64,000 bases of DNA from a bacterium (GCA_014803525.1 JAAVBP010000004.1:121369-185368), one strand, 5' to 3'. Counted from the stretch's first letter, positions 57,383 to 62,543 are shown. Notes: generated by a model not told the origin, from the sequence alone. Numbers and translations: made by a program.

Positions 57383-58456
57383 TTAGGACAGTGCGGCTGT
57401 GATTTGATCTTGCATTTGAAAGGTGCCCATGACAACCCATGCAATGACCAATGATACCAGAATTATACCGATGCTGTTCATTGTGCTGGATATCGATTCC
57501 ATACGACGCACAGACGCATCCAGATAATCATTTGCAACGTGCGACAAATTCTGGTCAAATCCGGTCATTTCCGCATATATTGCCAAATCGCCAATAATTT
57601 CTTCGTTTGGAAAATCACGCCCAGTGTTGGCCAACGCCACACCCAAATTATCACCGCCCGCAATATATCGCAGGGCCGCGGTCAAATTACTGCGCAGATA
57701 TTTATTCCCAGAATCGGCCAGCATTCGCATCGCGTCCCCAACCGTCATGCCCGCCGCCGTCAATGCCGACAGTGACATCAGCCATGATGCAGAAACCTTG
57801 ATCTTGTAAATACTCCATGGTGGCAATTTATCAAATGACGCACGCATACGCCCGGACCAATTCGCCATACTGAACCATATAATCGCCACAATCACGCCCA
57901 TTGCCAATACAACCGACATCCAGTATTTATCCGCCAACAGGCTAAGGTTTATTAATGACGCCGCCACACCACGCCATACGATATCACTGCCGGCGGCATC
58001 CGCCAATGGCGGTACCAGATACAGGCCAACCATTATTATAATTCCGAATGTCAGCGCCATCAAAAACAACGGATATGCCAATGCCGTAATCATTGCATTA
58101 TTTATCCGACGTGTACCATCAACAACGCGCCCAACATTTTCCAATGCAACGGCCAAATTCGATATATTTCCCGACGTCAGCAATAATGTTTCGTCCGGCG
58201 CAACCCATCCACGGGTGGCGTCTGAAAAGCTCATACCGCGTTCCAGATTTTTCTGCCATGTGCGCATTGCAATTGCAAATGGTTCACCGGGCTTTTTACC
58301 GCCACGCGATTCAATCATTTCGATCCGCCCCAGCGCATCCATCAATGTAAAATCATTACGCAACAGTGATGCCAATTTACGCAGTGTCGCCATACGCTTT
58401 GCGGTATTGGTTCGAAAAACCATTTTTGCATATAATTGTTCCAGGCGTTCCATCAA
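57383..58456 (-). CDS. Type II secretion / type IV pilus inner-membrane platform protein (GspF/PilC family; R64 PilR-like)
   Basis: 357 aa with three TM segments and two cytoplasmic helical domains typical of T2SS-F; overlaps the upstream ATPase gene by 4 bp. Confidence 0.65.
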   Translation of the reverse strand: MMERLEQLYAKMVFRTNTAKRMATLRKLASLLRNDFTLMDALGRIEMIESRGGKKPGEPFAIAMRTWQKNLERGMSFSDATRGWVAPDETLLLTSGNISNLAVALENVGRVVDGTRRINNAMITALAYPLFLMALTFGIIIMVGLYLVPPLADAAGSDIVWRGVAASLINLSLLADKYWMSVVLAMGVIVAIIWFSMANWSGRMRASFDKLPPWSIYKIKVSASWLMSLSALTAAGMTVGDAMRMLADSGNKYLRSNLTAALRYIAGGDNLGVALANTGRDFPNEEIIGDLAIYAEMTGFDQNLSHVANDYLDASVRRMESISSTMNSIGIILVSLVIAWVVMGTFQMQDQITAALS

Positions 58457-60117
58457 TATACCCCCGGCCGGTCCAGTAATCCAACCCAGCGTTCCAGTTC
58501 ATCAACCCCGATAATACCCTGTAACATTAATGAAATTGCGGCCTCTTTTAACGTGCGGCCATCCATTTCTTCCAGCCAGTATTTGACCGCCCCGTCGGTA
58601 TCCCCGGCCAGTGCCATGCGCAAAAATTCGCTGTTTGTGATAATAATCTCGCCCGCCTTGATACGTCCCAGTGTCCCCGACCGGCCACATTTTTCACATC
58701 CCGGGCCCCTTACAAACACCTGGCGCAGGCCGATTTCGCCAAACGCATCCATCACACGGCGATATGCCGGATGTTCTGGATGATCGGCCAGGGGCTCGCG
58801 ACAATCAGGACAAAGTCTTTTAAATAATCGCATGGATATCAGGCCACGCATCATCGTTTCTTCTTTTAGCTTAAATGCCTCAACCCCCATATCCAGCAAA
58901 CGCGTCAATGCCGCCATCGCGGAATTCGCATGCAATGTCGTCCAAACATTATGCCCGGACAATGCACCCTTGACCGTTAATTGCGCAGCCGACAATGTTC
59001 GTATTTCCCCCACCATCAGTGTATCAGGGTCACTGCGCAACGCGGCGGCCAGGGCCTCGGTAAACTTTTCTTCGCGTTGGTCTTCGTTCATGGCGTTAAC
59101 AACCGGCATCTGGTGCGCACCGAATATCTTTTGTTCCGCCGGATCTTCCACCGTAATCAGATTTATTTCATAGTGCCGCTCTTTTAACATTAATGACATA
59201 TTGCGCACCAGTGTCGTTGATTTACCGGAACTGGTGGGACCGGCCACAACGACCAATCCGGTTGGAAAAGACCGCAATTGCATCAACAATTTCTGTTCAT
59301 ATTCGCCAAATTCCTGGCCTGATGTGATGCCTTCGGACGGATTATCATACAGTAATCGCATCACAACATAACGCGATCCAAATGCAATCGGATTAAACTG
59401 CATACGAATACCCAAGACGCCAGACGGCAGATATAAATCCTTGGTCCCGCGCAGGGGTGTGCGCCCGTCTTTCTGGGCCGATTGATATTCATTCTGGGCA
59501 TAGTTGGCATTTGAAATATCCGCCGATGCAAATGCCGCACGAACAAATGATTCACCCCACCCCGAATTATATTCCAGAACCGGCTGCATACTGCCATCGA
59601 TACGGAAATAAATTGTGGTTTGGTCGGCAACCTCTATATGAATATCAGATACCTTTTGCGCGGCGGCACGTGCGACAATATCTACAAAATCCTTTTGCAT
59701 TTGGTTATCGTAATCAGGCCGACCACGATACATGCCACTGCGTCCCTCGTACATTTTGTATATGGATGACAATAATCCTAAATCAGAATAATACGGCGTA
59801 TTTGCCACCCGGCCACGGCGCGCCAACAGGTCAATAAATGCCAAAACACGCCCATCATATCGATGCGTACGCGATATAATTAATTCGCCACCGGAAAAAT
59901 ATGCAATTAAACTTTGTGTATCTTTGGACAGTTCAAATTCCGCACCCGCCGCGGTTAACAATCGATTTCCATTTGCAAACAGATAATCCACAATATCCTT
60001 GTTTGATGCATTTTCCAACCCCACCGGAACGGATGGGCTGCTGGCAAAAGAATTTGTAATCATACTGTCTGTTGTGGCCATTGAATTTGTTCCATATTGA
60101 TTAACGCACGGCGCCAA
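58453..60117 (-). CDS. GspE/PilB-family secretion ATPase with C-terminal tetracysteine (R64 PilQ-like)
   Basis: Walker A VVAGPTSSGKSTTL, Asp box, Walker B DTLMVGEIR, His box TTLHANSA, Zn motif CPDC...CEKCGRSG. Confidence 0.8.
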   Translation of the reverse strand: MAPCVNQYGTNSMATTDSMITNSFASSPSVPVGLENASNKDIVDYLFANGNRLLTAAGAEFELSKDTQSLIAYFSGGELIISRTHRYDGRVLAFIDLLARRGRVANTPYYSDLGLLSSIYKMYEGRSGMYRGRPDYDNQMQKDFVDIVARAAAQKVSDIHIEVADQTTIYFRIDGSMQPVLEYNSGWGESFVRAAFASADISNANYAQNEYQSAQKDGRTPLRGTKDLYLPSGVLGIRMQFNPIAFGSRYVVMRLLYDNPSEGITSGQEFGEYEQKLLMQLRSFPTGLVVVAGPTSSGKSTTLVRNMSLMLKERHYEINLITVEDPAEQKIFGAHQMPVVNAMNEDQREEKFTEALAAALRSDPDTLMVGEIRTLSAAQLTVKGALSGHNVWTTLHANSAMAALTRLLDMGVEAFKLKEETMMRGLISMRLFKRLCPDCREPLADHPEHPAYRRVMDAFGEIGLRQVFVRGPGCEKCGRSGTLGRIKAGEIIITNSEFLRMALAGDTDGAVKYWLEEMDGRTLKEAAISLMLQGIIGVDELERWVGLLDRPGVY

Positions 60118-60763
60118 TGTTTAATGTTTCGGTTTTTCCGTCTTTGATAAAAACGACCCCATCATCCAGCGATATAGACTTTACCATATATCCGTTTAAT
60201 GATGTACCCGTGCGAATACGTTTTGTTTGCCCAGTGCCCAGATCTTCGACAGTGGCCTGTAATTGCGAACCCGCCCCAATAACATTAATCAGACGGAAAC
60301 TGTCAGAAATTGCACTGTCTTCGTCGGCAACGGCCGCGTTTGTGTTGGCCACCTGGGCCGGTGCGGCGGCCGCCGCGGCCAATGATTCTTTTTCACGCGC
60401 GATACGTGCGGCTTCGGCTTCTAACTTGGCCTTTTCTGTTTCCAATTCTTGCTGTTGCGCCTCGGCCCGGCCGGACAGCGTATCGATTTCCATATGCAGT
60501 TTTATTTTTTCCGCGGCCAATCTGTCCAGTTCCAAATCCAATTGCGCGCGTTCTTTTTCCAACTGCATCAATACCTTTTCCTGTTCCAGTTCTGTGATTT
60601 GTTGAAACAGCGATCCTTCGACCTGGTATTCAGAGACGGCATCCGCGGAAACCGCATCCATATCATCGGCGATTGTATCGTCGATTACATCATCTGCGCA
60701 CGCACCGCCACATGCAACAATGGCGGCAACCGCAATTATAAAAAACGATTTCTTATTTAGCAT
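60101..60763 (-). CDS. Lipoprotein with coiled-coil and C-terminal beta domain (PilP-like pilot candidate)
   Basis: Lipobox IVACGGAC; long Glu/Ala/Leu coiled-coil; C-terminal ...LNGYMVKSISLDDGVVFIKDGKTETL resembling PilP/GspC HR-type domains. Confidence 0.4.
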   Translation of the reverse strand: MLNKKSFFIIAVAAIVACGGACADDVIDDTIADDMDAVSADAVSEYQVEGSLFQQITELEQEKVLMQLEKERAQLDLELDRLAAEKIKLHMEIDTLSGRAEAQQQELETEKAKLEAEAARIAREKESLAAAAAAPAQVANTNAAVADEDSAISDSFRLINVIGAGSQLQATVEDLGTGQTKRIRTGTSLNGYMVKSISLDDGVVFIKDGKTETLNIGAVR

Positions 60764-62027: not shown

Positions 62028-62117
62028 ATTCTCTCTTGGGCAAATTATAACATAAAAAATACACGTATGGCAAACAAAAAGCCCGCACTGTGGCGGGCCA
62101 AATCATAAAAAATAAAA

Positions 62118-62543
62118 TTAATATTCACATACACCCGCCGCACCACATGTTGTAGTAACGTAATCAACCGGATATGCAACAGTCGCCGCCCCACCATTGC
62201 GCGCAGTACGCACAGTGCGCGGATTCGGACAATCATATACGTTTGCAACCAATATAAAGCTGCGTTCTGGGCCAAAGATTACCCATTCATTGGGACGTGT
62301 ACGTTGACTGGTTATCCAATATGCATTACCGGGACGCGCCTGGTCTGCGATACGATTTTCCATATATCGGCGCGCATCATCGGCATCGTATACAGACGAC
62401 TCGGTTTCCAATTTATACAGAAACGTGCACCCCACAGGTTCCGCATCCAATTGGGTGATATATTCACTGCCATTTTCGTTTTTAATCATGTTTCCACATG
62501 CACACAGTGACAAAACAACCAATCCAGATAAAATCTTTTTCAT
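62118..62543 (-). CDS. Small lipoprotein (possibly pilM-like)
   Basis: Lipobox VLSLCAC; 141 aa; sits between lpxC and the pilus assembly genes. Confidence 0.45.
   Translation of the reverse strand: MKKILSGLVVLSLCACGNMIKNENGSEYITQLDAEPVGCTFLYKLETESSVYDADDARRYMENRIADQARPGNAYWITSQRTRPNEWVIFGPERSFILVANVYDCPNPRTVRTARNGGAATVAYPVDYVTTTCGAAGVCEY

Follow-up and report, generated by a model that had tools for sequence, protein, structure and literature searches.

Among described type IVb pilus systems, those closest to the locus reported here are Bfp of enteropathogenic Escherichia coli (bfpA-G-B-C-U-D-E-F-P-H-I-J-K-L, plasmid pMAR2), related E. coli plasmid clusters in the order pilin-TcpQ-secretin-PilO2-small protein-ATPase-platform-second ATPase-A24 peptidase-transglycosylase, and the R64, PAPI-1 and Burkholderia pseudomallei Tfp7 systems. 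Tfp7, an 'R64 thin pilus variant' (PilL-V), includes a protein of the TcpQ family and no peptidase of its own, and the PilO2/BfpC family is defined by the structures 3vhj and 4bz0 (PMC3984277). Here a stretch of 64,000 nucleotides (nt) of bacterial DNA (GCA_014803525.1, JAAVBP010000004.1:121369-185368; hereafter the window, with positions counted from its first letter) was analysed for four minus-strand genes, pilO2, pilP, pilQ and pilR, that follow the lipid A genes lpxK and lpxC. With a probability of about 0.78, these genes are read as the inner-membrane module of a type IVb pilus machine that an Enterousia/Rs-D84 host carries on its chromosome and inherits vertically, with the same core order as Bfp and the related E. 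coli plasmid clusters.

The window belongs to the chromosome of a Candidatus Enterousia-like alphaproteobacterium (order Rs-D84), a genome-reduced gut bacterium, and the remainder of it is ordinary chromosome carrying gyrB, aspS, uvrB, ftsQ, ftsA, lolCDE-like, tsaE and AsmA-like genes. Rs-D84 genomes measure ~0.75–1.0 Mb and lack respiration, standard transporters and most of the pathways for biosynthesis; members of the order are proposed to depend on a partner (PMC12306168). In the same comparative gene-content study, type IV pili were reported only in another lineage and none were listed for Rs-D84 (PMC12306168).

The pilO2-pilP-pilQ-pilR block

Reading along the minus strand, the gene order is lpxK, lpxC, a gene for a 141-amino-acid (aa) lipoprotein, pilO2, pilP, the ATPase gene, the platform gene and tRNA-Thr. 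This gene list, with its order and strand, agrees throughout with the first-pass annotation of the window. lpxK and lpxC, with a DUF374 gene upstream of lpxK, are neighbouring housekeeping genes outside the pilus machine. The features of the region are as follows.

63487 to beyond 63984, clipped at the window end (64000), minus strand: lpxK (PF02606, E 2e-35)
62564–63499, minus strand: lpxC (PF03331, E 4e-70)
62118–62543, minus strand: gene for the 141-aa lipoprotein, no family match, last gene of the lpxK-lpxC unit
62080–62099, minus strand: terminator-like hairpin, GGCCCGC-loop-GCGGGCU then UUUUUGUUUG, -13.3 kcal/mol, z -2.4
62044–62073, minus strand: promoter-like site, TTGCCA-N18-TGTTATAAT, TATAAT with upstream TG (extended -10)
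60753–62015, minus strand: pilO2/bfpC-type bitopic assembly protein, 420 aa, TTG start (PF06864 PAP_PilO)
60101–60763, minus strand: pilP-family lipoprotein, 220 aa (TIGR03021 pilP_fam)
58453–60081, minus strand: pilQ/bfpD-type extension ATPase, 542 aa, ATG start (PF00437 T2SSE, E 5e-63)
57383–58456, minus strand: pilR/bfpE-type polytopic platform protein, 356–357 aa (PF00482 T2SSF, two stretches)
57232–57305, minus strand: tRNA-Thr(GGT)
57028–57057: hairpin after tRNA-Thr, reading as a terminator on both strands

PilO exceeded the cut-off of PF06864 (35.0 bits against 26.7) and is laid out as a cytoplasmic N-domain, a single predicted membrane helix at residues ~165–187 and a periplasmic C-domain; it is identical to the public protein MBD5400481.1, named 'type 4b pilus protein PilO2'. 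A profile of 16 PilO orthologues matched the BfpC N-domain (3vhj, E 0.0016) and PilO2Bp (4bz0, E 0.05) in the PDB. PilP, whose gene overlaps the pilO stop by 11 bases, carries a lipobox (IVAC), a coiled coil at ~46–130 and a conserved C-terminal beta domain, and scored 31.3 bits on TIGR03021 (E 3e-7, cut-off 34.65); all 28 PilP orthologues scanned matched this model at E ≤0.001 (best 2e-10). The ATPase contains Walker A (GPTSSGKST), Walker B (DPDTLMVGEIR) and His box (SGHNVWTTLHAN) motifs together with the pair CPDC...CEKC, and the platform protein has three membrane segments, its start overlapping the ATPase stop codon. The T2SSE, T2SSF and PilO models that the first-pass annotation had named for these proteins were all matched.

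The longest open reading frames (ORFs) are 424 aa for pilO (start 62027) and 554 aa for the ATPase (58453–60117). The 542-aa start of the ATPase is favoured because six relatives have an in-frame stop aligned to residues 6–12 of the long ORF, and public gene calls give 420, 220, 542 and 356 aa for PilO, PilP, ATPase and platform, respectively; the true products of PilO, ATPase and platform are likely slightly shorter than their ORFs. Public annotation names the ATPase 'TadA' and lists the platform and PilP as hypothetical, which the present assignments correct.

The relationship of the ATPase and platform to type IVb proteins was evident in BLASTP alignments. The ATPase aligned over its full length with its counterparts from a Bosea plasmid (318 bits), with BfpD (265 bits) and with those of two E. 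coli plasmid clusters (274 and 259 bits), whereas E. coli GspE (176 bits) and HofB (134 bits) aligned with the C-terminal two thirds only. For the platform, scores were 174–214 bits with type IVb proteins (174–188 bits with Bfp and the E. coli clusters) against 43.5–43.9 bits with GspF and HofC. The best plasmid matches all lay in type IVb clusters ordered TcpQ-like, secretin, PilO2, small periplasmic protein, ATPase and platform, which is the bfpG-B-C-U-D-E order. On the NCBIfam models, the ATPase reached 222 bits for GspE (cut-off 630) and the platform 63 bits for GspF (cut-off 424). Neighbour-joining trees of the two proteins were unrooted and held too few sequences, and bit scores and coverage were used instead. 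A Tad/Flp pilus was likewise not indicated, the ATPase scoring 41 bits on the TadA-family model (cut-off 373) and its neighbours being PilO2, PilP and a full-size GspF-type platform. These comparisons support the assignment of the four genes to the PilO-PilP-PilQ-PilR (BfpC-BfpU-BfpD-BfpE) module of a type IVb pilus and not to a type II secretion system (T2SS). The first-pass annotation had considered that the two proteins might group with canonical T2SS GspE and GspF, with a gsp operon just beyond the window; both scored higher with type IVb proteins, and no other gsp genes were present within the window or just outside it. The machine is like T2SS (GspC-O) in its ATPase and platform superfamilies, in having a secretin and in a bitopic protein with an actin-like domain analogous to GspL, and unlike it in having no Gsp pseudopilins, GspC or GspM and a secretin that falls outside the GspD models.

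Conservation of the block was followed in related loci. When one genome per species was scanned, a relative proved to be encoded at 220 loci, of which the best 80 were used for counts; nearly all of these are labelled gut Alphaproteobacteria or Candidatus Enterousia, one comes from a circular 958,618-bp genome, and two with Bacteroidota titles (L033, Muribaculaceae; L070, Bacteroides fragilis) were taken as mis-binned contigs. pilO was found in 80/80 loci, pilP and the ATPase in 79/80 and the platform in 76/80, the shortfalls being contig ends, and in the related loci each pil gene gave a single high-coverage alignment with no stops inside the coding regions. The O-P-Q-R block directly follows lpxK-lpxC-lipoprotein in 73 of the 80 loci. 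Since pilO is present in all 80, the block is complete wherever the contig allows and its place is kept in these 73, the arrangement is not a product of chance. Median identity to the window protein was 82.4% for the ATPase, 71% for the platform and 60% each for PilO and PilP, compared with 91% for GyrB, 66% for LpxC and 59% for LpxK. Walker A, Walker B, His box and tetracysteine were intact in 76/76 ATPase orthologues. The G+C content of the pil stretch (0.48) lies within that of most of the window (0.44–0.50).

The likeness to pilM-pilO-pilP-pilQ-pilR of R64 proposed by the first-pass annotation held for O-P-Q-R but not for PilM. Neither Pfam PilM nor any other family was matched by the 141-aa lipoprotein or its 24 orthologues, even at E up to 1. 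The gene follows lpxC in the same 73 loci, and where lpxC is lacking it does not stand upstream of pilO either; it travels with lpxC and is not counted as a pilus gene. Its family has 40 representatives, mostly of 103–110 aa, among 1.84 billion cluster representatives, and a median identity of 76%, above that of LpxC. A single-sequence AlphaFold model of the protein was unusable (mean predicted local distance difference test score, pLDDT, 36).

A second locus with TcpQ and secretin

The window itself holds no secretin, class-III-signal pilin, A24 peptidase or second ATPase. The first-pass annotation had suggested that the missing secretin might be the 444-aa lipoprotein at 24.3 kb (24294–25628, minus strand), a candidate that was rejected: although pairwise BLAST gave a few short collinear patches, its alignment with a secretin profile in hhalign had a probability of 1.3%, no match was obtained in Pfam, NCBIfam or the PDB or with secretin hidden Markov models (HMMs) at E up to 10, and relatives have a PilN/BfpB-type secretin elsewhere. 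The gene for this lipoprotein lies directly upstream of lolC/E-lolD-like genes and was found in one of the 80 related loci.

A tblastn search with the Bosea secretin located the C-terminal part of a secretin at the start of one related contig (L027, 3–845), 9 kb upstream of pilO and on the same strand. In relatives, a second locus consists of sufBD and a 180-aa membrane protein gene (both on the minus strand), tcpQ, the secretin gene, variable genes, rpsT, plsY, dprA and dnaA. Its TcpQ (PF10671) is ~300 aa long and its secretin 537–541 aa, with an N-terminal lipobox. The locus was found on contigs of up to 532 kb; TcpQ homologues amounted to 1070 clusters, and intact secretins 82–85% identical to the query were present on contigs of 290 and 532 kb. 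A word-indexed search with a secretin fragment had returned 64 clusters on contigs of ≤11.5 kb and suggested rarity, which was wrong, and this count was not used. On TIGR02520 (PilN family), the secretins of relatives scored 249–255 bits, compared with 226 bits for BfpB and 276 bits for the Bosea secretin, and none of the GspD models matched them. Because tcpQ and the secretin gene stand at a second conserved locus in relatives, the machine is considered to be split into an outer-membrane and an inner-membrane locus, the latter at lpx. This bears out the split apparatus suggested earlier from the window, and we infer that the genome of the window carries the tcpQ-secretin locus as well.

Examples of the second locus are L086 (9292–12577), L088 (9300–12524), L083, L084, L085, L087 and L089. 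It lies close to the replication-origin genes rpsT, plsY, dprA and dnaA, joined by gyrB in L086. The conserved membrane protein, of 178–181 aa, is encoded divergently from tcpQ in every example; it was tried as a pilin and rejected, since its N-terminus forms a membrane helix but is without a leader or G/E motif. In three cases the secretin was called as two ORFs, a 90–97-aa lipoprotein N-terminus and a part of 441–468 aa (L083, 9681–11286; L084, 8213–9840; L085, 5738–7365). An N-run is the cause in L083 and frameshifts are the cause in the other two, and each of these short metagenome contigs stops <600 bp after the gene. These split calls could be assembly errors or real variation.

Set beside Bfp and the related E. 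coli clusters, the PilO N-domain matches BfpC and the secretin of relatives matches the HMM of BfpB. Unlike Bfp, the Enterousia core is cut between secretin and pilO, with both halves among chromosomal housekeeping genes and with no pilin, minor pilins, retraction ATPase, peptidase or transglycosylase beside either; unlike plasmid-borne Bfp, the machine is vertically inherited across the lineage. With R64, PAPI-1 and B. pseudomallei Tfp7 it shares PilO2, an ATPase of the PilQ type and a platform of the PilR type, probably also PilP and, as seen in relatives, a lipoprotein secretin of the PilN family. It differs from R64 in that no PilM, PilL, PilS, PilV, shufflon or PilT was found and in not being on a conjugative element. 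The best match in the plasmid collection was pBSY19_1 of the alphaproteobacterium Bosea sp. RAC05, with the order tcpQ-secretin-pilO2-pilP-like-ATPase-platform. Unlike that of Enterousia, this cluster is unbroken, and a PilT-like ATPase and PilV come next in it; the identities are low (ATPase 37%, platform 33%, PilO 27%), so that Bosea is not a recent donor.

Several results weigh against the reading of the block as part of a type IVb pilus machine, the first being the parts that were not found. Pilins were sought with a class III signal scan (leader, G/A/S at -1, E at +5, hydrophobic stretch) that recovered, as controls, BfpA, BfpI, BfpJ and BfpK together with those pilin genes in two other E. 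coli clusters that bear the motif. The scan covered the window, 10 kb past its left end, 5.6 kb past its right end, the 80 pilO loci and the secretin loci (~1.9 Mb of related loci), and in all of this no credible pilin with a class III signal was present, nor was a prepilin peptidase, a retraction ATPase or a lytic transglycosylase. Searches by tblastn with Bosea and E. coli pilins, one E. coli plasmid A24 peptidase, PilT-like ATPases and a transglycosylase gave nothing, the PilT-like queries returning only the expected weak cross-match to the extension ATPase. The lack of a pilin or peptidase gene after the module, already remarked on in the window, extends in this way to its flanks and to the related loci. 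Furthermore, the second locus was observed in relatives only, their secretins lie ~35 bits under the TIGR02520 cut-off of 287.65, and the window PilP falls 3 bits short of the curated TIGR03021 cut-off. The PilO fold predicted by AlphaFold from 16 close orthologues was unusable (mean pLDDT 64), its N-domain being poorly modelled (<50), and Foldseek against the PDB returned nothing below E 0.028. Adhesion, DNA uptake and secretion are all candidate functions.

Pilin and peptidase genes are beside neither locus in any species covered, and would lie elsewhere in the genome. Some R64-type clusters use a peptidase encoded elsewhere (PMC3984277), and Tcp is described as retracting without a retraction ATPase (PMC5207764).

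Possible workings and functions of the machine

By analogy with Bfp, Tcp and R64/PAPI-1, the ATPase would form a hexamer docked on the cytoplasmic actin-like domain of PilO2/BfpC and on the platform. It would drive the platform so that pilin subunits are lifted from the inner membrane into the growing fibre, and the PilP lipoprotein would bridge the periplasm to the PilN/BfpB-type lipoprotein secretin, aided by the TcpQ-family protein. The four proteins are identified by their own matches, and the interactions among them are expected to follow those of the model systems.

The fibre would most likely serve contact with a partner cell or with a gut or host surface. This role is favoured because the lineage is predicted to depend on other cells and because of the part played by type IV pili in the episymbiotic Saccharibacteria, where they are required for host association (PMC9894109). 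Known PilO2-type pili recognise surface structures of other cells, such as lipopolysaccharide, in mating (PMC5297154, PMC9045228). A more specific version, in which the organelle attaches to and exploits a partner cell as in Saccharibacteria, perhaps with a non-canonical subunit or no dedicated peptidase, is put forward as speculative and rather doubtful; such a subunit, or the lack of a peptidase, is conceivable because neither gene is beside either locus in >80 species. Animal and human guts commonly harbour Rs-D84/Enterousia, an uncultured lineage with reduced genomes that is presumed to live at the expense of other cells, and a pilus motor found in every species examined and more conserved than LpxC and LpxK is a candidate means of contact with partner cells or the gut surface. 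The motor is also a target for microscopy, anti-pilus enrichment and attempts at co-culture.

The same machine might instead be used mainly to take up DNA via the secretin, as a source of nucleotides or genes for a lineage without nucleotide synthesis (PMC12306168). The machine is complete enough for a fibre, and a conserved dprA stands a few genes away from the secretin gene. However, dprA is widespread in non-competent bacteria, and none of the loci showed comEA, comEC or a retraction ATPase. Known PilO2/BfpC-type systems serve adhesion or mating and not transformation (PMC5297154, PMC9045228), and DNA uptake as the main role is considered unlikely.

A use mainly as a secretion device, in which a short pseudopilus exports proteins through the secretin as in T2SS or as with Tcp and TcpF, is judged a serious but unlikely alternative. 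It would fit the absence of a nearby retraction ATPase in a lineage without standard transporters (PMC12306168), and the GspE model is the top NCBIfam match of the ATPase, although this says little because NCBIfam apparently has no ATPase model specific to type IVb systems. Against it, type IVb proteins are favoured over GspE and GspF by 90–170 bits, no GspC, G-K, L or M genes were found, and the partners of the ATPase and platform are PilO2, PilP, TcpQ and a PilN-type secretin.

Boundary with the lpx genes and other features of the window

In the first-pass annotation, the pil genes were embedded in and co-transcribed with the lpxK-lpxC operon, and their apparatus, without a secretin, was tied to Dot/Icm (type IVB) secretion through a DotL-like coupling protein. 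The genes do lie on one strand with short gaps, in an order kept in 73 of the 80 loci, and the coupling protein gene is 14 kb away; the spacer between the lipoprotein gene and pilO nevertheless argues for a boundary. In the window it is 90 bp long and carries both a terminator-like and a promoter-like signal. The hairpin (62099–62080) begins 18 nt past the stop of the lipoprotein gene, and a hairpin with a T-run is found at the same place in 70/73 relatives with unrelated stem sequences; structure is therefore conserved while sequence drifts. The promoter-like site (62073–62044) is the top sigma-70-like match in 57–64 kb, with 11/12 positions, and an extended -10 (TGnTAnAAT) occurs 13–20 nt before the pilO start in 79/79 loci, including the seven without upstream lpx genes. 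Where the pil block does not follow DUF374-lpxK-lpxC-lipoprotein (7/80 loci), unrelated genes stand upstream, the lipoprotein is missing together with lpxC, and the break falls exactly at the spacer. Because terminator and promoter signals are conserved in the spacer, the pil genes are best taken as their own transcription unit, with lpxK-lpxC-lipoprotein probably ending at the terminator, and co-transcription with the lipid A genes appears unlikely. The position beside these genes is inherited gene order and not functional coupling.

Two relatives have an insertion of ~1.2 kb between the lipoprotein gene and pilO (L051, 8901–9896; L080, ~600–1780), which in L051 encodes a 331-aa protein resembling an outer-membrane beta-barrel (C-terminus ...RFEF). 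At the other end of the block, the hairpin at 57028–57057 is likely the end of the pil transcript in the genome of the window. That the operon stops at a tRNA is not general in the lineage: among 18 relatives whose tRNAs were scanned, just two have tRNA-Thr after pilR.

The coupling protein bears on the proposed link to type IVB secretion.

41540–43804, plus strand: coupling protein, 754 aa (VirD4, TraG and TraD models)

No DotL model matched this protein, and its distance and orientation relative to the pil genes vary across species. A shared small genome is all that links it to the pilus genes. The ATPase scored 45.7 bits on the DotB model (cut-off 463). VirB3 and VirB4 are encoded ~7 kb upstream of the lpx-pil cluster in one relative (L091, 272–2984), and a P-type (VirB-like) type IV secretion system seems, from these matches, to be present in the lineage, unlike the I-type conjugation of R64, since that of the relative is of the VirB/VirD4 type. 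Together with the secretin at the second locus in relatives, these results make a secretin-less apparatus joined to the lpx operon and to Dot/Icm very improbable. The unusual features of the locus, namely co-transcription with lipid A genes, the missing secretin and the type IVB secretion link, thus largely dissolve, and the lead of a coupling between pilus and lipid A is removed; what is left standing is a type IVb pilus machine on the chromosome, split in two and present throughout a little-known lineage of genome-reduced gut bacteria. That the genes are a non-functional, decaying remnant of a plasmid or island type IVb cluster from which pilin, peptidase and secretin were lost is hardly credible, for although such clusters are usually mobile and contiguous and only four genes stand at the pilO locus, the block occurs in all related species examined, free of frameshifts and stops, its ATPase is more conserved than LpxC and keeps its motifs throughout, the promoter is conserved and the G+C content is ordinary.

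Elsewhere in the window, the w50277-gyrB-orf215-ung block lies in the opposite orientation to that of most relatives, and in the handful of relatives where tRNA-Thr(GGT) was seen this tRNA adjoins either pilR or the ung end of the block, which suggests an inversion breakpoint near ung/tRNA-Thr. Between ung and tRNA-Thr, a 687-aa protein (54966–57029, plus strand) belongs to no family and has no homologue in the 80 related loci. The stretch 4000–19300 has a low G+C content (0.34–0.43 against 0.44–0.50 elsewhere) and resembles an integrated mobile element; it contains a C5 DNA methylase gene (7937–9715), a gene for a 1207-aa secreted protein without family (12686–16309), a small resolvase-like gene (16497–17096), a large serine recombinase gene (17485–19203) and small ORFs, and ends at tRNA-Tyr and tRNA-Gly (19036–19221). 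Immediately after ftsQ, a 592-aa ORF (27261–29039, plus strand) combines an FtsA-like part (~185–323) with a complete ribulose-phosphate 3-epimerase domain (381–573) and is either a real fusion or the result of a lost stop codon. A family 6 glycosyltransferase (44997–45872, minus strand; PF03414, E 4e-26) is a notable gene for a gut bacterium, the family including the mammalian blood-group A/B transferases.

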